Positions 1 through 9,311 are shown, counted from the stretch's first letter. The stretch is 64,000 nt of DNA from a candidate division FCPU426 bacterium (GCA_963849245.1 CAWKIY010000029.1:3733-67732), one strand, 5' to 3'. Made by a program: numbers and translations. The notes: generated from the sequence alone by a model not told the origin.

Positions 1-1350
1 CCCCGGGAGAGATAATCGGGCCATTGTTTCTTCATCGATTCCAGGGTGTTGCGGTCGCCTTCATAAAGCATAATGTGATTAAAGCTGACACCCGCGTCCA
101 CAAACATCGCCGGGTCCTGCCCATGCTGATGGCCCATCTGCCAGCCGAGGGTAAAAGTGAAAACCGGCTTGTTCATTTTCGCCTCGTCCAAAATGCTCTT
201 AAGCGCTAACGCCACTTTGTGAGCCCTCCACCATTCGAAGAGCGAGACAACCTCCATATTTTCCTTGAGTTCAACAGTTCTAGCCAGCCAATGAATTCTT
301 TCCTGCTTGGACATGGTCCAATAATCCGCGGGACCCGGCACGTTTAAATCCCTCACGAACTCGTCCACCATTTCATATCCCGCGAAACCGGTTCTCACGT
401 AATCCAATCCCACCATGTCGATCAAAGGGTCCTCGTTCATTTCCTTCAGGAAATCAATAACATCTTGCCGGCGCTTAGAATCATTCAGGGAAATAAACCG
501 GGTTTGAACCACTTCATCGCTATCTGGGTCATACCCGAGCGAAAACTCATAGGGAGCCTGGTTCCAAGCGTCACCGACGACTTTAAATGTGGTCATATAA
601 CCAGCAAACTTGATTCCCTTTGCATGAGCGGCCTTGGCGTATTTATGTCCCACTTCAACATCGCCCCGGTTAAAGGGAAAATCTTTCGCGTTCAAGTGAT
701 CCCAAACGGAAGTTTGACCCATCAGATAGCAATAAATATTGGCTCCCATAAACTGGGCCCAATCGAGGGCGTTGGACGCGCGCATCGAGTCGCCGCCGTC
801 TAAAGCGGGCAATGCCCCGTTAATTAATTGTTTGCCGCCTTCCATGGTCAAAGCCGCGTATCCGGGATACAGCCCTTGAGGTTTCAAAGGTGGAATCGTA
901 AAAGCCGACTCGAAACTCTTAGGGACCTGCCAATCGCTGGAAGACACGGTGACTTCCGCGATATAAGTCCCTGGTTTTGGGTTGTAAGGGATCGGCCAAT
1001 TACCAATCAAACGCCCGCCCCCCGCGTCTTTCTTTAAGTTCAGCTTGGATCGCCCATCCACCATGGAAACCGGTTTTCCATCGCAATAGACTTCCACACT
1101 CGCGCGCATCTCGGCGAAACGCGTGGTTTCCTTGGGGTTTAATTTCACCTCAAAAGGCACCATTTCGTAGCGCAAAAAACTGCGGGCAGGCATCACCGCG
1201 ATCACATCGGGAATCATTTGAGAGACCGAGGGGGACAATGGGGAGGATTTTTTCATCAGGGGCGCCAAAGTCGCCTTGGCGATCAAAACCCCGCTGACCA
1301 GAAACGCCGCGGCTAAAACCCAGCGGACTTTCTTGGGTGCCAAGACCCAG
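1..1350 (-). CDS. Secreted or membrane-anchored glycoside-hydrolase-like (TIM-barrel-type) domain protein. Partial, continuing past the left edge of the window. It lies in the same reading frame as the upstream rlmD-like ORF with no intervening stop.
   Basis: Manual minus-strand translation runs from 3293 down to position 1 with no stop codon, which is why the ORF track omits it (no in-window stop). After the methyltransferase domain ends (~1860) there are hydrophobic segments (LFTLFLSLAAAVLNW; KKVRWVLAAAFLVSGVLIAKA, signal or anchor-like). A large hydrophilic domain follows (..GANIYCYLMGQTSVWDHL..GLDYVRTGFAGYEMVDEF..LGWQMGHQHGQDPAMFVDAG..) that resembles extracytoplasmic glycosyl-hydrolase-like families. 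A possible independent TTG start lies near 1350. Family assignment not verifiable here. Confidence 0.4.
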
Positions 1351-1851
1351 GTCAAAAAGAGTTCGAATCGGGGTCTGGGGAATGAAACGCGGGGCCATTT
1401 CCAAGTCCGCCGGATTTTGGGAAAAGCCGGTGGAGCGGGAGCGACGAGAGGCTGCTCCGCCTCAACCGAAGGGGCTCCCGTCACAATCGCGGCCACGGAA
1501 GCCGGAGTCTCTTGTTCGTTCTCAACCACCGTGGTTTCAACGGGTGAAAAAGTCGAGTCCAAATGAGGCTCGGAAGCCAGGGGAACGCCGGGAAGAGCTT
1601 CTTTCGCGGCCCGATCTGCGGAAGGGCGTTTGAAAAAAAGCTTGGGCCAGTTAAGAACCGCCGCCGCTAAGGAAAGAAACAGAGTGAATAACGATTGAAT
1701 CTGCCGTTTCAAAACAGTCCCTAAAGTTCGCGTCGTCTCCTTCAGGGTTGAGTAATTGGCCGAGATATTTAAAAGGGCTTCATTGGTCTGTTTCGGCAGA
1801 CGAAAAGGCTCAAGCTGGGCTTGATTCGCCTGGGACACAATTTCCGGCGGC

Positions 1852-3293
1852 AAAGGGGTTTCCCGGGTCAGCTTCACCACGGTTTCCACATGATAAGTTT
1901 GCGGAAACATATCTAACGGTTGAATCCAATCCACCGCGAAACCCTGTTTGGTTAACAAGGCCAAATCCCGGGCCAAGGTGGAAGGGTCGCAAGAAACATA
2001 GACTAAGCGTTCCGGGTGTAAAGCCGCGATGCGGGCCAAAATTTCGGGGCTGACCCCTTTGCGGGGTGGATCTAAAATCGCGGCGTCAATTTGGGTCAGA
2101 CCTTTTTCTTTGAGCCCTAAAAGAATTTGGGCCACATCCCCTTCTAAAAAATCAATGTTCGTTCGGTGGTTCGTTTCGGCGTTTAAACGGGCGTCTTCCA
2201 CCGCAGGGGCGATTTCCTCCACTCCCACCACATAGTCGGCTTTTGGGGAGACCGCTAAGGCCAGTGTTCCAATACCGCTGTAAAGATCGAGAACGGTTCC
2301 CCATTTTTTCTTGTGAACTGGATCCCCCAAGGCTTCCCGGACAATGGTGTGAAGCATATCCGCTTGCGGCGTGTTGACTTGAAGAAAAGAACGGAGAGAA
2401 ACTTTCAATTTCAGATCATCAATGATTTCAAAATAATGATCTCGTCCGGCCAGGACTTTCGTTTGGGGTCCAAAGACTATATTGGTCCGGGAAGGGTTGA
2501 TGTTTTGAAGGACTCCGACCAAATTGGGGTTTTCTTCCATTAATTCTTGGGCGAGACGGGGCAAAATCTGGTTCAATTCTTCCGCGATGGCTGTGGGCTT
2601 TTGCAGACGCTCCTCAGGAATCTCGGTACGGGTCACGAAAGCCAACAGAATCTCCCCAGTCTTAAATCCCTGGCGCAGGGTCAAATGGCGTAAAAACCCC
2701 GTGTGTTTCTTTTCCTGATAAGGCGTTAATCCGGAACGGTTGATCTTACTGAGTACTTTTTGAATGAGGTCATTGATCGCGTCGCCCTGAATGGGACAGG
2801 TATGATAAGGAACCAGGTGATGGGAACGGGGCTCATAAATACCCGAAATGAAATGACCATCTCGCATCGAGATGACCGGCATGGCTTTATTGCGGTAAGC
2901 GTAAGGAGAGGGCGACGGCAAACAAGGCTGTACTGTCAGATTCGTTAAACGGCCGATGCGCTCCAAAGCGTCCTGAACAAACTGCCGTTTGGTTTGAAGC
3001 TGGCGGGGATAGCTGAAATGCTGCCATTGACAGCCGCCGCATTCCTCAAAGATGGAACAAACCGGGGCTACCCGGTCCGGGGAATGCCGCAAGACTGACA
3101 GGATCTCGCCGGTAGCGTAATGATCCTTGACCTGGGTAATTTTGACTAAAACTCTCTCGCCGGGAAGTCCCCCCGGAACAAAAACAGCGAACTCCTGGTA
3201 ACGACCGACCGAATCACCGCCGAAAGCCAAAGCGTTAATTTCAATTTCAATTTGATCCCCGAATCGAACGGGTTTGGTCGTGTGGGTGTTCAT
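1852..3293 (-). CDS. rlmD: 23S rRNA (uracil-5)-methyltransferase RlmD/RumA-like (TRAM domain, Fe-S Cys cluster, SAM methyltransferase). Apparently degenerate: frame-scrambled motif and no stop codon.
   Basis: ATG at 3293 (cat on plus at 3291-3293). N-terminus MNTHTTKPVRFGDQIEIEINALAFGGDSVGRYQEFAVFVPGGLPGERVLVKIT is a TRAM domain. PVCSIFEECGGCQWQHFSY matches the RumA Fe-S Cys motif. ..VLDLYSGIGTLALAVSP.. is SAM motif I. ..LVYVSCDPSTLARDLALL..LDMFPQTYHVETVV matches the RumA C-terminus. The conserved FxQVN block (KFSLRSFLQVNTPQADMLHTI) is only readable in a different frame from both flanks. Confidence 0.8.
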
Positions 3294-3740
3294 GGTCGTC
3301 CTGATGAAAAAATATCCTGGGCCTCACTTGGATCCAAGGCATCGAATCGTCAATGAGCCCCCATCATCGATTGGTTAAATCACTTATGCTTCTCGAAAAC
3401 AGTGAGACGCCTGCTTTTGAAAAAACGAAGAGACTTTTTCTGGTCGCGCAAAAAGAAAAACCCTAAGAGTGGTTCTCTTAGTATTCTAACCCTTTTTCAA
3501 ACGGGGGCAACCGACTTTCCCTGTTATGCCCGCGGTTATCTTGATTTGAGGGATGACCCAAGATAAAAGTTCACCCCGAGGAAGAGACTGCGAACCATTA
3601 CGGCTGGCGACCCCCACCCAATTCCCACACGTAAACTAGCGGGCAAAATCCAACCGGACACTGACCCCTGGGTCGGACAAGCCCTTAATTAAATGTGTTT
3701 TTAAAAGAGAATGACTTAATTCTTAAAGCCTTCGCTGTCC

Positions 3741-3768
3741 CCCCTCTTTTGGGAAAAGAGGGGGTTAT
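3741..3768 (-). terminator. Rho-independent terminator-like hairpin downstream of the 3795..4556 gene
   Basis: Inverted repeat cccccctctttt / aaaagaggggg directly after the minus-strand stop at 3795. The T-tract on the transcribed strand is weak. Confidence 0.45.
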
Positions 3769-3794
3769 CTGGGGATTTTCAATCGCGGGTTAAG

Positions 3795-4556
3795 TTATTT
3801 CTTTTTCATTTCGGCGGGGTCCGCTTCCAGCCTTAAATAATCCAGATAGACCACAATCGGCTGTTCACCCGCGGGAATCGGGGTAGTCACGGCCGTCGGA
3901 GTCGTGGAAACGCTCATCGGCTTCACCATGGCCGGTTGGCTGGCGGCCGTCGTTGTCGCTAGGGGGGTCGAAATCATGGCGGCGGGAACCCCGTTCGCGT
4001 CGACCCTAAATCGGAAGGAACGGATCGAGGTCAAATCCAGCCGAGCCTTTTCCAAATCCTCCATGGAAATAGAAAGATTGGAGACTTTTTTCGGGTTCAA
4101 TACACCCGAAGTTTCATAGACAAAAGCCCTGGCGTCGGCGATTTGAATATGGTAATTCAGGGGCTGGTCTTGCGGGTTATAAACATCCAATTTCAAGCTG
4201 GTGTAATCCTGCCATTCAAAAACCGAAAGCCGTGTCACCGAATTGGTATCCAAAACCGCCTGAGGCTGCCAAACCGCGTCCGGGGTGGGCGTGGGGAAAA
4301 ACTGGCTGGCGGTTAAAAAGGTGACTTTGGCGCTGTGCTTGCCGTGAGTCTGGTTTTCCGTGGAGGATTCCATCTTGACGTATCCGCCCGTCGTCCAATC
4401 GAAATCATCCCGTTCATTCTCAAAGTCATCGATAACGAGGGTTTTCTTAACATCCTTATGGCGTTTGAAATTACGGGTGATACCTAAACCTACAGCCGCG
4501 GCGTAAAGCAGGGCCAAGACCAGAAGAATACCTAAAATTTGCATGAATCGTTGCAT
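3795..4556 (-). CDS. Hypothetical membrane-anchored protein with N-terminal TM helix and Thr/Pro-rich C-terminal region
   Basis: ORF track 253 aa. N-terminal hydrophobic ILGILLVLALLYAAAVGL. C-terminal TTPTAVTTPIPAGEQP. No recognised catalytic motif. Confidence 0.55.
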   Translation of the reverse strand: MQRFMQILGILLVLALLYAAAVGLGITRNFKRHKDVKKTLVIDDFENERDDFDWTTGGYVKMESSTENQTHGKHSAKVTFLTASQFFPTPTPDAVWQPQAVLDTNSVTRLSVFEWQDYTSLKLDVYNPQDQPLNYHIQIADARAFVYETSGVLNPKKVSNLSISMEDLEKARLDLTSIRSFRFRVDANGVPAAMISTPLATTTAASQPAMVKPMSVSTTPTAVTTPIPAGEQPIVVYLDYLRLEADPAEMKKK

Positions 4557-4690
4557 GTTCCGTCCTCAAATAGGGGGTCGAAGAAAAGCGAGGGCATTGT
4601 ATCAGTCAGGAAGGGCTCCCGCAACTTTAGCCGGAGGCTTAAAGCGTTTTCAAGCAAGACAGGCCCAACATTGAAACAAGAATCCCAAGT

Positions 4691-4815
4691 AAAACTGCTT
4701 TCACCGCCAAGACGCCAAGTCCGCCAAGAAAGGCAATAAACAATCAGTTTTAAAGAATTTTAACTTTTTTTGGTGTTCTTGGCGGACTTGGCGTCTTGGC
4801 GGTGGAAGCAGTTTT
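4691..4815. repeat. Long near-perfect inverted repeat (40-bp arms, 1 mismatch, 45-nt AT-rich spacer). Each arm carries three reiterated GCCAAG motifs at 8-9 bp spacing.
   Basis: Left arm 4691-4730 aaaactgctttcaccGCCAAGacGCCAAGtccGCCAAGaa. Right arm 4776-4815 is its reverse complement except one base. Lies between the 3795..4556 gene start and the LacI gene stop. Confidence 0.85.
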
Positions 4816-4843
4816 GATTAAAAGCCCAACCGGCCACAACTAC

Positions 4844-5869
4844 TTATTTTTTCACCCCAGAGGATTCACGGACGACCAGCAGGGTCGGCATAAACACCTG
4901 GCGGGTTTTCCAGGTATCTAAATGATGAATTTTCTCGATTAAAATTTTCGTCGCTTCCACGCTCAGTCCCCGGAAATCCTGTTTCATCGTGGTCAAAGAA
5001 TAGGGCGGCTTGGAAGCCTCGGCGATATCGTCAAAGCCCACCAGCGCGATATCTTTCCCCACTTTCAATCCCGCTTTTTCAATCTCATCCCAGGTGGCCA
5101 AGGCCATCAAGTCGTCCGAGGAGAAAATCGCCGTAGGCCGGTCGGATAAAGCCAATAATTTTTTAGCCGCTGCCGTTCCCGAAACCCGGGTAAAGGAACC
5201 TTCCACAATATAGTTTTCCGGAATATTTAGGCCGTGCTTTTTCATCGCGTTTTTATACCCTGTGAGGCGATCCATGGCGTCCGAGGACATTTTCACCGGA
5301 CCCGCGATAAAAGCGATTTTCTTGTGGCCCAGGCCGACCAGATAATCCACCATTTGGGCCGACGCGTTTAGGTTGTCGCAATCGACGAAATCAATGTCCG
5401 GGCTTTCCGTGCGGTGCCCGATCAACACGATCGGAACCTTATTTTCAGTGATATGTAAAATATCTTTTTCAGACAAAATGGGCGAAACCAGCAGGATGCC
5501 GTCCATCGCGTTATGAAACATCTTTTTATAAATTTCCACGGGATCGAAAACGCCGGCGATCGTATTTACCAGAAGACCGAAATCGTTTTCTTGAACTGTC
5601 TCGTTAATCCCGTTTAAAAGTTCCACATACCAATGGGCTTTAAAATCGCACTTAGTTTCAAACCAGGAAAAAAAGACTTGGATGAGATTCGTTTGGTTCA
5701 CCACTAACCCCCGGGCAATGGGATTAGGTTTGAATTCCAGTTCTTCGATGATTTTCAAGACCTTTTGCCGGGTCTCCTCTAAAACATTTGGATTTTTGTT
5801 GAGAACCCGGGAAACAGTGGAGATCGAAACCCCGGCTTTGTTCGCGACATCATAAATTGTGACGGACAT
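4844..5869 (-). CDS. LacI/GalR family transcriptional regulator
   Basis: N-terminal HTH MSVTIYDVANKAGVSISTVSRVLNKNPNV, followed by a periplasmic-binding-protein-like sugar-binding fold (..FDDIAEASKPPYSLTTMKQDFRGLS..). Confidence 0.9.
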   Translation of the reverse strand: MSVTIYDVANKAGVSISTVSRVLNKNPNVLEETRQKVLKIIEELEFKPNPIARGLVVNQTNLIQVFFSWFETKCDFKAHWYVELLNGINETVQENDFGLLVNTIAGVFDPVEIYKKMFHNAMDGILLVSPILSEKDILHITENKVPIVLIGHRTESPDIDFVDCDNLNASAQMVDYLVGLGHKKIAFIAGPVKMSSDAMDRLTGYKNAMKKHGLNIPENYIVEGSFTRVSGTAAAKKLLALSDRPTAIFSSDDLMALATWDEIEKAGLKVGKDIALVGFDDIAEASKPPYSLTTMKQDFRGLSVEATKILIEKIHHLDTWKTRQVFMPTLLVVRESSGVKK

Positions 5870-5894
5870 GGCGGCTCCTTAAGATCGCTTTCAA

Positions 5895-5904
5895 AGCGCT
5901 TTCA
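5895..5904. promoter_or_regulatory. Candidate LacI-type operator (10-bp perfect palindrome AAAGCGCTTT) in the divergent LacI/suhB intergenic region
   Basis: tcAAAGCGCTTTca lies 26 nt upstream of the LacI start. The central AAnCGnTT core fits LacI/GalR operator architecture. Not experimentally verifiable here. Confidence 0.3.
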
Positions 5905-6130
5905 TCACACTTCACACGAATCCCCGTTCGTTAAAACTAGCGGGGAGAAATAATTCTTCTAAACGAAACTTTCACCGTTGTTGAATGGTTCAACGAACGG
6001 AATTCATTGCGGCTGAAATGGATTTTAGCATGAATTAAATAAAAAAGCCGGGCTTTCCCCCGAACTTTTTCAGCTTTCCGAAGGTCTAAACGCTGTTACA
6101 ATCCACGGAATTTAATTCAAAGGATGAAGG

Positions 6131-6937
6131 ATGAACCTCTTTTTAAAAGCCGCGGTCCAGGCCGCTCAAGCCGCCGGAAAAATCCACAAAAAACACTACG
6201 GCAAAACTCTGAATATCCAATTCAAATCCAAAAACAACCAGAATCTCGTAACCCAAGTGGACAAACTTTCGGAAAAAGCGATCCTCTCCCTCCTCCAAAA
6301 GCGTTTTCCCGCCCATAACTTTTTAGGAGAAGAAAGCGGCGGGCAGGAAAATAACTCCCGCTACACCTGGGTGGTCGACCCTTTGGATGGCACCACCAAT
6401 TTCGCCCACGCCTATCCTTTCTTCTGCGTTTCCATCGCCCTTCTGAAAGATAAGAAGCCCGTGGCCGCGGTGGTTTACGACTCCCTCCGAAACGAGTGCT
6501 TCACCGCGGAAAAAGGCCGCGGCGCCTTCTTGAATGGCCGCCGGCTGAATGTTTCCAAAATCGGGACCTTAGAGGAAAGCCTTCTTTGCACCGGCTTCGC
6601 CTATGCGGTCCGCGAAACCCGCTACAACCTGGATAACTTTGAGAAATTCGTTTTAAAAGCTCAGGGGGTGCGCCGGGACGGCTCCGCCGCTTTGAATCTC
6701 GCCTATGTGGCAGCGGGCCGTTTTGACGGTTTCTGGGAAAGGGGCATCCAAGCCTGGGATATGGCCGCGGGTGTTTTGCTGGTCTGGGAAGCCGGAGGCC
6801 AAGTTACCGATCTCACAGGCAAGCCCTATGACTTGTTCAAGGAAAACGCCCTGGCCAGCAACGGCAAAATCCACAACCACTTATTCAAAATCCTGAAAAA
6901 CGGCCAAGACGAAAAAACCTGGGCGAAAAACCATTAA
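6131..6937 (+). CDS. suhB: Inositol monophosphatase family protein (SuhB/IMPase-like)
   Basis: WVVDPLDGTTNFAHAYPFFCVSIAL contains the IMPase DPLDGT motif. WDMAAGVLLVWEAGG matches the C-terminal motif. 268 aa. Confidence 0.85.
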   Translation: MNLFLKAAVQAAQAAGKIHKKHYGKTLNIQFKSKNNQNLVTQVDKLSEKAILSLLQKRFPAHNFLGEESGGQENNSRYTWVVDPLDGTTNFAHAYPFFCVSIALLKDKKPVAAVVYDSLRNECFTAEKGRGAFLNGRRLNVSKIGTLEESLLCTGFAYAVRETRYNLDNFEKFVLKAQGVRRDGSAALNLAYVAAGRFDGFWERGIQAWDMAAGVLLVWEAGGQVTDLTGKPYDLFKENALASNGKIHNHLFKILKNGQDEKTWAKNH

Positions 6938-7159: not shown

Positions 7160-8836
7160 ATGGAAGCGAGATTCAGAAAAGTTGGGTTTCTGTCGGTTTT
7201 ATTGTTTCTGGGAGTTCACGCCGGTTGGGGGGAAGTCACTGTTTCAACCCAACCCCGGCAGGTTACGGTATTTCCCGACAGCGCCCGGGTCGTTCGGGAA
7301 GGCTCGTTAAAACTGGAGGCGGGGCCGGAAAAAGTTCTCTTCCCCGACCTACCCGCCTCCGTCATTGAATCCTCCATCCGCCTCACGGTAGATGGCCCCC
7401 CGGGCACCAAACTCTTCGGCGTCGAACTGCGCAAGGAATATACCCCGGAAGTCGCAGAGGAGCGGACCCGGGTGTTGAAGAACCAAATCCAATCCCTCGA
7501 AGACGAACGCACCGCCTTTACCGACCGGGTCGACGCGCGTAAAACCGAAATGGACATTTTGAAGGGACTCGCCAAAGAAAGCGCCTCCACCGCCGCCTGC
7601 CAAGGCGCCACCCATGCCGGAACCATTGTGGACTTCACCCGCTCCGCCGGCGCGGTGGGCGCCCGAATCGCCAAACTCATGCTGGCTTCCCGCAAAGACG
7701 AGCGGGGCATCCGGAATTTGGATTTGAAACTCGCCGCCCTGAGAAAACAATTGTCCGAAGGCGGATCCCCCGACCGGGAAAAGAAAACCGCCTCCGCGGA
7801 CTTGGAATTAGCCCAACCCGGTATTGCCCGGTTTACGCTCACCTATCAGGTCTCGCAAGCCGGCTGGACTCCTCTTTACGATCTGCGGCTGAATACGACG
7901 GCTGAAAAACCCCAAATGGACCTGGTCTTCAACGCCGGGGTTCGCCAGAAGACTGGCGAGGATTGGAACGGAGTCGCCTTAACCCTTTCCACCTCCCGGC
8001 CCACCGAAGGCACCCAGGTACCCGACCCCACCGATTGGTGGCTGGACTTCTTCAATCACGAAGTATTCCGGGCCAAGAAACTAATGGGCATGGCCGCCTA
8101 TGCTCCCGCACCCGCCAGCTCGAATGCCGCCCTCTATGAGGAAAAAAATGACGATAGCCAGGACGCGAGCCTCGAGGCAGCCCAAGTCGAGACGGCCCAA
8201 ACAATTCAAGCCCCCTACGCTATGTCCTTTTCCATCCCCACCCACAAGGATATTCCCTCCGACGGGTCCGACCACCGGGTAGAGATCGCCGAGAACTCCC
8301 ACCCCGTCGCCCTGACCCTGGTGGCGGTCCCCCGCCTGTCCCAAGCCGCCTACCTAGAAGCCAAGATCACCTACGGCGGCGAGCAATCCCTGCTCCCCGG
8401 CCAAGCCCAGCTTTTCCGGGACGGTGATTTCGTGGGAACGACTTATCTGGAAGCCAAAGCCCCCGGCGAGGCCTTTGACCTAGGGTTTGGCCAGGATGAC
8501 CAAATCCGCGTGGAAAGAAAAATGGTGAACGAAACGACCGGCCAAGCGGGATTCCTTTTCACCAAGGGCGAACGCAAATACGACTGGGTGACAACCCTGG
8601 TGAACTATCACTCGGGCGTCCGCACGGTGGAAGTGAGGGAACAGCTTCCCCGGTCTCATCAAAAACAGATCACCGTGGAAAAAGACAACATTTCCCCGAA
8701 ACCCCAACCCGAAAACCCCGACAAGCCCGGCCTAGTTTGTTGGAAACTGGAGCTAACTCCAAAGGAAAAAACCAAACTGACCTTCGCCTATCATGTGAAC
8801 TTTCCGGAAGATATGCAAATTTCAGGACTGGAATAA
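7160..8836 (+). CDS. Secreted DUF4139/DUF4140 family protein (mucoidy-inhibitor MuiA-like)
   Basis: Likely true start MEARFRKVGFLSVLLFLGVHAGWG (signal peptide) with AGGTG RBS at 7151. The track start at 7067 is a TTG inside the inverted repeat. 558 aa, with coiled-coil and a beta-rich C-terminus typical of the DUF4139 family. Family call from memory, moderate. Confidence 0.6.
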   Translation: MEARFRKVGFLSVLLFLGVHAGWGEVTVSTQPRQVTVFPDSARVVREGSLKLEAGPEKVLFPDLPASVIESSIRLTVDGPPGTKLFGVELRKEYTPEVAEERTRVLKNQIQSLEDERTAFTDRVDARKTEMDILKGLAKESASTAACQGATHAGTIVDFTRSAGAVGARIAKLMLASRKDERGIRNLDLKLAALRKQLSEGGSPDREKKTASADLELAQPGIARFTLTYQVSQAGWTPLYDLRLNTTAEKPQMDLVFNAGVRQKTGEDWNGVALTLSTSRPTEGTQVPDPTDWWLDFFNHEVFRAKKLMGMAAYAPAPASSNAALYEEKNDDSQDASLEAAQVETAQTIQAPYAMSFSIPTHKDIPSDGSDHRVEIAENSHPVALTLVAVPRLSQAAYLEAKITYGGEQSLLPGQAQLFRDGDFVGTTYLEAKAPGEAFDLGFGQDDQIRVERKMVNETTGQAGFLFTKGERKYDWVTTLVNYHSGVRTVEVREQLPRSHQKQITVEKDNISPKPQPENPDKPGLVCWKLELTPKEKTKLTFAYHVNFPEDMQISGLE

Positions 8837-8851
8837 AGTCGAAGGGAAAAA

Positions 8852-8890
8852 GCAAAAAGCTAACCGGGAAAATTCCCGGTTAGCTTTTAT
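8852..8890 (+). terminator. Rho-independent terminator
   Basis: gctaaccggg aaaatt cccggttagc (10-bp perfect stem) followed by ttttattgttt, 16 nt after the stop at 8836. Confidence 0.8.
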
Positions 8891-8956
8891 TGTTTAAAAG
8901 GTTCTAAGTTCCACGCAAGATTTGGATGGGTTTATAGAACCAATGGTGGACAATTC

Positions 8957-9265
8957 CTAAAAGGAAAGGAATTTAAAACACATATAAATCAGCAACGGAA
9001 CATAAGTAACCATCATCCATTTATAGAATTTATAAACTGTTCGATCATTTGCGGCGTTAACACCATTCCTTATCCGCTTAATCAAATGATAAGTAAAAAA
9101 AATCCAAAAAAACACTAGTTCAAAAAAAGGTAACAAAATAAAAAGCGAAATATTTTTCTGAGGTGGCATGCAATAAACAATCAAGATTAAGGAAAACACT
9201 GATAAATGAAAAAAATGTCTGCCGTAAAAAGTTTCATATCTCTTTTTATTCTGCGTATTTTTCAA
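8957..9265 (-). CDS. Small (102 aa) hydrophobic membrane protein encoded in a ~30% GC islet
   Basis: ORF track. About three predicted TM segments plus basic residues. The surrounding 8950-9270 region is strongly AT-rich compared with the neighbouring genes. No recognisable family. Confidence 0.45.
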   Translation of the reverse strand: MKNTQNKKRYETFYGRHFFHLSVFSLILIVYCMPPQKNISLFILLPFFELVFFWIFFTYHLIKRIRNGVNAANDRTVYKFYKWMMVTYVPLLIYMCFKFLSF

Positions 9266-9311
9266 AATACTATCGTCTCCCCAATTGGCTTCGAGCCAGC
9301 TCTCTGCGTTA

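Follow-up and report, generated by a model that had tools for sequence, protein, structure and literature searches.

The 64,000-nucleotide stretch of DNA analysed here (the window in what follows), which comes from a candidate division FCPU426 bacterium (GCA_963849245.1, CAWKIY010000029.1:3733-67732), carries at its beginning a minus-strand gene that joins two parts in a single open reading frame (ORF): RlmD, the RumA-type 23S rRNA (uracil1939-C5)-methyltransferase, and a C-terminal region of about 640 residues that is likely, on the evidence of its modelled fold and of its relatives, to be an exported glycosidase-like enzyme. That this ORF is a real, conserved fusion is as good as certain. 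The fuller statement, that it represents an intact two-compartment fusion in which an internal signal peptide directs the export of the enzyme and is likely to be cut by signal peptidase I, is put forward with slightly better than even confidence. No fusion of RlmD to a membrane or exported domain was found in the literature, as judged by titles and abstracts, and the arrangement in which an internal signal peptide connects an intact RlmD with an exported glycosidase-like enzyme is apparently undescribed. The parts are of known kinds; what is new is the combination, together with the biogenesis that it implies.

The minus-strand frame that opens with the ATG at 3293 runs for 1097 codons without a stop and leaves the window at base 3, and the other two minus-strand frames hold 60 and 44 stops over the same stretch. 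The full protein (P0019), which is encoded on a 72.6-kb contig and comprises 1317 residues, is 100% identical to all 1097 residues encoded in the window; positions 3-3293 of the minus strand are the first 1097 codons of an intact, single 1317-codon gene, the final 220 residues of which lie beyond the window. An earlier note on this DNA had recognized a textbook RumA translated from the ATG at 3293, with its TRAM domain, Fe-S motif, motif I for S-adenosylmethionine (SAM) binding and C-terminal LDMFPQTYHVE, and all of these are present, the cysteines as a CX5CX2C...C set. It had also remarked that no stop occurs where RlmD should end (~1860), and the same frame does continue for more than 600 codons until it runs off the window, while the signal-like hydrophobic segments and the glycoside-hydrolase-like domain that it placed in the extension are borne out by hydropathy, predicted fold and structural matches.

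The interpretation which that note preferred, a decaying rlmD pseudogene that had lost its stop, has not survived. It rested on a pair of compensating frameshifts, an extra T at 2398-2401 and a missing base at 2336-2340, between which a conserved block was thought to be legible only in another frame. The main frame from 3293 itself encodes this block, KLKVSLRSFLQVNTPQADMLHTIV, with FLQVN at residues 303-307 (nt 2373-2387) between the two supposed lesions; there are no stops in the 1097 codons, and the alignment to the RlmD hidden Markov model that the note had itself proposed, TIGR00479, extends through the module in a single stretch. The two frameshifts are therefore to be understood as a slip in a hand translation. 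Neither base change is needed, and orthologues such as P0016 and P0017 match the protein across this block in both residues and length.

The RlmD module occupies residues 1-478 (1860..3293, minus strand, as for all features of the gene), an assignment that rests on TIGR00479, Pfam, the solved structure of RlmCD, an AlphaFold2 (AF2) model and substitution rates. TIGR00479, the NCBIfam model for RlmD, aligns residues 24-470 with model positions 3-432 of 432 at 410.1 bits, the curated cut-off being 183.55 bits; the Pfam matches in the module are to TRAM (PF01938, E 7.8e-12), an RNA-binding domain at residues 12-65 (3099..3260), and to tRNA_U5-meth_tr (PF05958). The best solved relative is RlmCD of S. 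pneumoniae (5xj1, E 6e-70), and the predicted local distance difference test score (pLDDT) of the AF2 model is about 90 over the module. Among 48 aligned fusion orthologues, the residues expected of a working enzyme are invariant. These include the four cysteines of a presumed [4Fe-4S] site, Cys79-X5-Cys85-X2-Cys88 (3030..3059) with Cys166 as the fourth ligand (2796-2798), a spacing that agrees with that of the cluster ligands of E. coli RumA (1UWV). They also include F303, Q305 and N307 of the FLQVN block; L335, D336, L337, G340, G342 and T343 of the SAM-binding motif I LDLYSGIGT (residues 335-343, 2265..2291); the DPPR motif; S434, C435, D436 and P437 of the SCDP motif (1983..1994), in which Cys435 is the catalytic nucleophile and which is aligned to ISCN of RlmCD; and H468 and E470 of the HVE motif (1884..1892), in which Glu470 is the presumed general base. 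All of these residues, those of SAM motif I, DPPR, SCDP and HVE among them, align to the solved RlmCD structure, the alignment with which stops at residue 476.

The module thus described has the full architecture of RlmD/RumA as it is known from E. coli (1UWV/2BH2) and from S. pneumoniae RlmCD (5XJ1), namely a TRAM domain, a four-cysteine central domain and a SAM domain with its cysteine and glutamate, and the N-terminal 478 residues are judged from these motifs to be a complete and probably active RlmD. The difference lies in what follows: an ordinary RlmD is a soluble protein of 430-480 residues that ends about six residues after HVE, whereas the protein studied here runs on for another 840. 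When the module was examined for the marks of a pseudogene, no frameshift, premature stop or relaxation of selection was found in it. No second rlmD gene is present in the window or in any of the fetched loci. A different FCPU426-labelled metagenome-assembled genome (MAG; GCA_040756875.1, JBFLYH010000002.1, locus L032) carries at 5001-6401 an ordinary 466-residue RlmD after gatC-gatA-gatB and before polA; this free-standing enzyme is only 42% identical to the fused module, and with such a divergence the fused copy may be either an orthologue or a paralogue.

The distribution of the fusion among relatives was established in several ways. A scan of one genome per species detected the C-terminal domain (C-domain) in 29 MAGs, seven of which are titled "candidate division FCPU426", a taxon of phylum rank, and 17 loci, from close relatives (MAGs labelled FCPU426 or simply "bacterium") and from two ENA contigs, were traced by tblastn and ORF tracing; the FCPU426 MAGs derive from palsa and MFD soil datasets. 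In 15 of the 17 loci an uninterrupted ORF runs from RlmD through the linker into the beginning of the C-domain, and 13 of these 15 are full length (1380-1473 residues); of the remaining two, L006 is cut by the start of its contig, and L001 is continuous through the junction and split further downstream by a one-nucleotide frameshift deeper in the C-domain (~12740). A profile search recovered in addition about 45 clusters of 1204-1509 residues with TRAM, PF05958 and the C-domain, several of which are named plain "RlmD" by NCBI or JGI, the proteins so named having 1260-1509 residues.

The exceptions to continuity are few. In L002 the frame shifts at a TTTT run in the linker (~9985), and homology continues straight across the shift, as it does in L001. 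L001, L002 and L036 (6700-11000) are ENA assemblies in which the fusion is broken by single-base shifts and neighbouring genes are fragmented as well, L036 being a nanopore contig, and the breaks in all three look like homopolymer errors of assembly rather than biology. In L037 (~2080, ENA contig k141_1451159) an in-frame TAG replaces the Gln codon of DMFPQTYHVE and homology goes on in frame beyond it; a nonsense mutation of very recent origin would account for the TAG, as would an error in the sequence. Separate adjacent genes were considered as the ancestral state in close relatives, and were rejected: these four loci contain the only splits, and homology spans each break.

Substitution rates agree with the reading frames in pointing to a maintained protein. 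Nei-Gojobori ratios of nonsynonymous to synonymous substitution (dN/dS) in orthologue pairs lie at 0.04-0.09 in RlmD, at 0.15-0.35 in the linker and at 0.04-0.18 in the C-terminal region. The RlmD figures derive from five orthologue pairs with an estimable dS, three others being saturated; all three ranges are approximate, because dS is close to saturation. RlmD is under purifying selection as strong as that acting on the C-terminal domain. The linker between them diverges to 31-50% identity between the orthologue pairs compared, with many indels, and yet it contains no in-frame stop in any of the 15 loci, as against 2-16 stops in each of the other frames; the continuous frame is therefore itself under selection.

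These observations bear directly on the proposal that the locus is a decaying rlmD pseudogene with frameshifts and a lost stop, or else an artefact of assembly or of a chimeric contig, which can be regarded as refuted. No support for it survives checking: such lesions as exist are confined to L001, L002, L036 and L037, of which the first three occur in assemblies with other broken genes, and the window itself has neither frameshift nor stop in the module, retains every catalytic and cofactor residue that is invariant in the 48 orthologues, and belongs to a lineage in which RlmD evolves at the low dN/dS given above. An error of assembly is excluded, since independent MAGs, which come from different studies and were built with different assemblers, all show this continuous ORF (contigs named NODE_, k141_ and contig_). 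The earlier note had named orthologues with a conserved fused architecture as the observation that would tell against its pseudogene, and it had listed a genuine chimera among its alternatives; such orthologues were found, and the chimera is therefore the correct alternative. Of that interpretation as a whole, then, the RumA call, the secreted glycosyl-hydrolase-like call and the chimera alternative stand, and the pseudogene and stop-loss reading that it favoured falls.

The linker (residues 479-650, 1344..1859) is mostly disordered, with an AF2 pLDDT of about 30 for residues 547-644, and is variable in both length and sequence: it has about 170 residues in the protein studied here and 127-373 among orthologues. 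Two elements stand out from it. The first is the motif EPFRLPK (residues 495-501, 1791..1811), which is kept in every fusion; F497, R498 and L499 are each present in at least 90% of the 48 sequences, and EPFRLP[KR] occurs in all 15 loci. This motif lies about 25 residues past the end of the RlmD fold, amid linker sequence that cannot otherwise be aligned, and a docking or processing site is possible there. The second is a long AF2 helix, H1 (residues 510-547, 1653..1766), whose C-terminal half is hydrophobic. The hydropathy of its 19-residue segment is 1.55 in the protein studied here and ranges from 0.9 to 2.6 among orthologues, a range that rules out H1 as an obligate second membrane span, and the helix is probably membrane-associated without being obliged to cross. 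Programmed -1 frameshifting that would free RlmD, in the manner of dnaX, was also considered and rejected: the window does contain a CCCTTTG heptamer, yet the orthologues share no conserved slippery site downstream of RlmD.

Directly after the linker lies a segment with the anatomy of a Sec-type signal peptide (residues 651-674, 1272..1343), which comprises a basic n-region (K654, R657 and W658), a 13-residue h-region with a GGG core, and the putative cleavage site A672-K673-A674 (1272-1280); the AF2 model places a helix at residues 654-680. Within the 48 fusions, position 654 is K or R in 37 and position 657 is R or K in 36. At the A-x-A site, position 672 is Ala in 43 of 48 and Gly, Ser, Val or Thr in the others, position 673 is variable, and position 674 is Ala in all 48; the fusions continue directly after it with T-L-[SA]-P. 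This anatomy agrees with the -3/-1 rule of signal peptidase I, and the 15-residue flanks of the segment have a Lys and Arg content of 3.0 N-terminally and 1.8 C-terminally. Because the segment lies some 650 residues inside the ORF instead of at an N-terminus, it is not filed as a canonical signal peptide, although it is expected to work like one.

A segment of this kind resembles an ordinary N-terminal signal peptide, and it has therefore to be asked whether translation might begin just ahead of it, so that the exported enzyme would be made alone, from the vicinity of the TTG at ~1350 at which the earlier note had placed a possible separate downstream gene, and the read-through from RlmD would be a by-product. 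In-frame TTG codons do occur in the window 28 and 24 codons ahead of the A-x-A site. Neither these nor any other start before the hydrophobic segment is conserved, however, and five orthologues (L007, L009, L012, L015 and L016) have no ATG, GTG or TTG whatever within 46 codons upstream. In the other loci most candidate starts are not preceded by anything like a Shine-Dalgarno sequence, and only two TTG candidates, both in L005, reach 5 of 6 matches to AGGAGG. Internal initiation also predicts an unconstrained linker frame, contrary to the open linker of all 15 loci. An internal start before the signal peptide was accordingly rejected as a candidate, and the account built on it is considered very improbable. 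With no conserved internal start and no conserved slippery site, it follows that the exported part is made as part of the fusion.

Beyond the signal peptide, the exported region begins with an N-terminal β-sandwich (residues 690-800, 894..1226), whose AF2 strands have a pLDDT of 90-94, and continues with a glycoside-hydrolase-like (β/α)8 barrel (residues 801-1097, 3..893) that is cut by the window edge and that contains the motif GLDYVR (residues 962-967, nt 393-410). The complete arrangement was modelled in the homologue P0002, for which AF2, supplied with a 47-sequence alignment, gave a pLDDT of 85 and a predicted template modelling score (pTM) of 0.81; the order in that model is helix, β-sandwich, (β/α)8 barrel and C-terminal β-sandwich. 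A Foldseek search against the PDB returned 359 matches at E <= 1e-3; glycoside hydrolases fill every one of the top 50 places, led by the GH66 dextranase 5axh (E 4e-13) and followed by members of GH14, GH2, GH13 and GH123. The predicted three-domain fold is that of the glycoside-hydrolase TIM barrels with flanking β-sandwiches (GH66 5AXH, GH2, GH13 and GH14); the template modelling scores (TM-scores) of the PDB matches are just 0.2-0.3, so that the resemblance is to be read at the level of the fold, and in contrast to those enzymes the region has no sequence match at threshold and no assignable catalytic pair.

A family defined by sequence was sought for the C-domain and rejected at accepted thresholds. 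There is no match in Pfam or NCBIfam for P0002 or for the C-terminal region in the window (the C-terminal 618 residues, searched against Pfam), and a profile search of PDB sequences with the C-terminal region returned nothing. The relatives yield weak matches: GHL10 (PF02638) is weakly matched in 4 of 37 diverse relatives, with a best E of 0.002, and the N-terminal β-sandwich of relatives weakly matches the Ig-like Pfam families MG2 and CARDB. GHL10, the nearest family by sequence, includes E. coli DigH/YddW. The GLDY[VI]R motif lies at the end of β4, and its Asp is among the conserved acidic residues at the ends of the barrel strands (E214, D360, E370, D456, D505, D545 and E561 in P0002 numbering), a set that could not be superposed on a known active site. 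The glycosidase-like activity and the substrate of the domain, like the methyltransferase activity of the RlmD module, are thus what we infer from fold and motifs.

The C-domain belongs to a small family without a name, of which there are 216 representatives at 50% identity out of 1.84 billion. Close homologues of the C-terminal 618 residues exist, and several of them have RlmD domains too. The 13 free-standing relatives that were traced, in MAGs labelled Zixibacteria, Coatesbacteria or "bacterium", are proteins of 600-750 residues with no RlmD nearby; free-standing members from these and other groups share the three-domain exported region at 28-39% identity, and they differ from the fusions in beginning directly with a lipoprotein or Sec signal peptide. 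Most of the 13 start with a lipoprotein signal peptide (lipobox ...LLSCGPCGKK), and an N-terminal hydrophobic signal is present in 77 of 92 full-length members of the family; from these signals it follows that the domain family is exported. Near one fusion locus (L004, a palsa MAG), positions 95-3685 encode a 1196-residue autotransporter with a β-barrel domain and PATR repeats, which points to the presence of an outer membrane in these organisms, in which case the exported region would reach the periplasm or a place outside it.

Two further representatives of the C-domain family, P0208 and P0204, carry long N-terminal extensions, and these are distant fusions of the same general plan. P0208 (1135 residues, from the NCBI MAG GCA_030621225.1) is co-linear with the RlmD module studied here at 24% identity (E 1e-25) and matches TIGR00479 over model positions 3-427 of 432 with 77 bits (E 1e-21), far under the cut-off. 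It retains the TRAM domain and the four cysteines; SAM motif I, DPPR, the catalytic cysteine (SCDP having become AESA) and HVE (now GMR) are gone from it. A hydrophobic segment and then the C-domain, at 33% identity, come directly after its RlmD-like module. P0204 (1102 residues) is 36% identical to P0208 over 811 residues, starting from inside the RlmD-like module. Both proteins have the order of RlmD-like module, hydrophobic segment and C-domain that is found in the protein studied here, from which they differ in having a linker of only about 30-50 residues and an RlmD-like module (~460 residues) that is catalytically dead. The fusion is therefore older than the traced clade of close relatives and able to outlive RlmD catalysis, and the dead modules hint that the module has a role apart from catalysis, or else that it is slowly decaying. 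Two metagenome scans revealed no additional representatives of this clade. Two genes upstream of P0208, at positions 4268-5044 of its locus (L034, JAUXIB010000064.1), there is a signal peptidase I gene (Peptidase_S26), with a DUF374 gene between; this may be a coincidence.

The biogenesis that is proposed for the intact fusion is as follows. The RlmD module would fold and remain in the cytoplasm, and would be followed by the linker of about 170 residues with its EPFRLPK motif and hydrophobic helix; the internal signal peptide would then engage Sec and thread the C-terminal ~640 residues across the inner membrane, and signal peptidase I would probably cut after Ala674. One gene would in this way yield two proteins, a membrane-tethered RlmD with linker and signal peptide, which might be set free at a later point, and a glycosidase-like enzyme in the periplasm. 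Since the hydrophobicity of H1 varies too widely for it to span the membrane in every case, a single span with the N-terminus in and the C-terminus out is the only topology that would fit all orthologues; this topology, with an exported C-terminal region, is considered quite probable, and cleavage at the A-x-A site is considered evenly balanced.

Several considerations weigh against the proposal. Topology and cleavage are both read from patterns in the sequence, and the charge bias across the signal peptide is modest. Signal peptidase I normally cuts N-terminal signal peptides, internal cleavage being rare naturally in bacteria, and the fusions with a dead RlmD have no clear A-x-A site, P0208 having AFGG followed by RG and P0204 having S-I-A. 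H1 is in many orthologues as hydrophobic as a membrane helix, up to the value of 2.6 given above, and if it were to span the membrane, the topology would be more complex than the one proposed. Finally, the fusion may be selectively neutral, with no known functional reason for the joining of the two enzymes.

If the signal peptide were never cut, it would act as a type II signal anchor, and the gene would make one bitopic protein of about 145 kDa with RlmD on the cytoplasmic face of the inner membrane and the glycosidase-like domain on the periplasmic one, in which case the RlmD fold would be, in part if not wholly, an anchor or stopper in the cytoplasm. This is the principal alternative, and it shares with the proposal of cleavage all the evidence for the ORF, the topology and the export. 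It gains from P0208 and P0204, which keep an RlmD-like module of some 460 residues without its catalytic motifs, as would be expected if the module had a non-catalytic role in an intact fusion, and in which the A-x-A site is unclear. What speaks against it is the conservation of the site in the close relatives: the invariant Ala at -1, the residue at -3 that is always small, and the freedom of -2 together form the signature of signal peptidase I, for which a permanent anchor has no obvious use, and for a stable span the h-region, at 13 residues around a GGG core, would be a short one. An uncleaved anchor is therefore regarded as possible, and as distinctly less probable than the account that includes cleavage.

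It could also be supposed that the fusion is itself functional, as a coupled or signalling protein in which the periplasmic domain, binding or cleaving glycans, and the RNA-binding module on the other side of the membrane communicate, or in which the module brings RNA or ribosomes to the membrane to the advantage of the exported enzyme. The persistence of the fusion across clades whose C-domains are only about 33% identical, its survival of the catalytic death of RlmD, the retention of EPFRLP in the linker and a conserved neighbourhood that includes a LacI-family regulator and several envelope-type genes without annotation would all be in keeping with such a role. A disordered, fast-evolving linker of 130-370 residues is a poor conduit for conformational signalling, however, and AF2 gives no fixed contact between the modules (pTM 0.51), so that coupling of this kind is thought unlikely. 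A related and wider conjecture, which is offered as a doubtful one, is that the RlmD-like module is an integral working part of an undescribed class of two-compartment proteins, that it binds RNA or ribosomes, being enzymatically active in FCPU426 and dead in P0208 and P0204, and that it links the status of ribosomes or rRNA at the membrane to envelope glycan metabolism, the fusion being no neutral accident; in such a class, the joining to an exported glycan-active enzyme could be either permanent or that of a polyprotein cut by signal peptidase.

Precedents exist for the processing that is proposed. FbcH of Bradyrhizobium japonicum, the cytochrome b-c1 precursor, is a polyprotein that is split at an internal signal peptide by signal peptidase. 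In hepatitis C virus (HCV), the core protein ends with the signal peptide of E1, and signal peptidase separates core from E1 (PMC5402940). The fusion described here resembles these polyproteins in that its N-terminal part, which faces the cytoplasm, runs into the signal peptide of the exported protein after it, with a site of the A-x-A type closing the hydrophobic core. The present case differs from both polyproteins in that its cleavage is predicted only, in that its partners, rRNA methyltransferase and glycosidase-like enzyme, are not known to be related in function, and in that it occurs in an uncultured bacterium.

The fusion gene stands in a conserved context, in which a gene for a LacI-family regulator is followed by one for a protein of ~230-250 residues with an N-terminal hydrophobic segment and no family, and then by the fusion. 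In the window, the regulator gene lies at 4844-5869 and the gene for the ~250-residue protein at 3795-4556, both on the minus strand, and the same upstream pair is found in relatives at 7390-9302 (L001), 3822-5798 (L002) and 3921-5882 (L004). Downstream of the fusion, outside the window, there are several large genes for proteins of ~255, 840, 750 and 800 residues with no match in Pfam or NCBIfam. The 500-nucleotide gap upstream of the fusion (3294..3794, minus strand) contains a promoter-like site (3510-3483) and a terminator-like hairpin (3481-3463), which come from a consensus scan only and score no better than shuffled controls, and which are accordingly given as context and not as evidence. 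Two intergenic inverted repeats, at 4691-4740/4766-4815 and 6946-6995/7045-7094, lie on either side of the LacI-family gene; they have 50-nucleotide arms that are 90% complementary and loops of 25 and 49 nucleotides, they are unlike each other in sequence, and both give sub-threshold matches to miRNA-precursor models on both strands. Across the whole 64-kb window no tRNA gene was detected, and no Rfam family reached its gathering score.

The immediate significance of these results is for annotation, since about 45 clusters of 1200-1500 residues are labelled plain "RlmD" and a 640-residue exported domain belongs to a family without a Pfam model; both labels deserve correction. The significance for biology is wider. 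Enzymes that modify rRNA are regarded as soluble and cytoplasmic, and here an RlmD, its catalytic residues all under strong purifying selection, has been retained in one polypeptide with an internal secretion signal and a periplasmic enzyme by each of the close relatives that were traced, many of which bear the label FCPU426. If the A-x-A site is cut, the gene would be a rare natural bacterial case of two proteins produced from one gene by the processing of an internal signal peptide, and if it is not, the product would be the first membrane-anchored RlmD. In either event, the relatives with a dead RlmD constitute a natural experiment on a role other than methylation for the N-terminal module.

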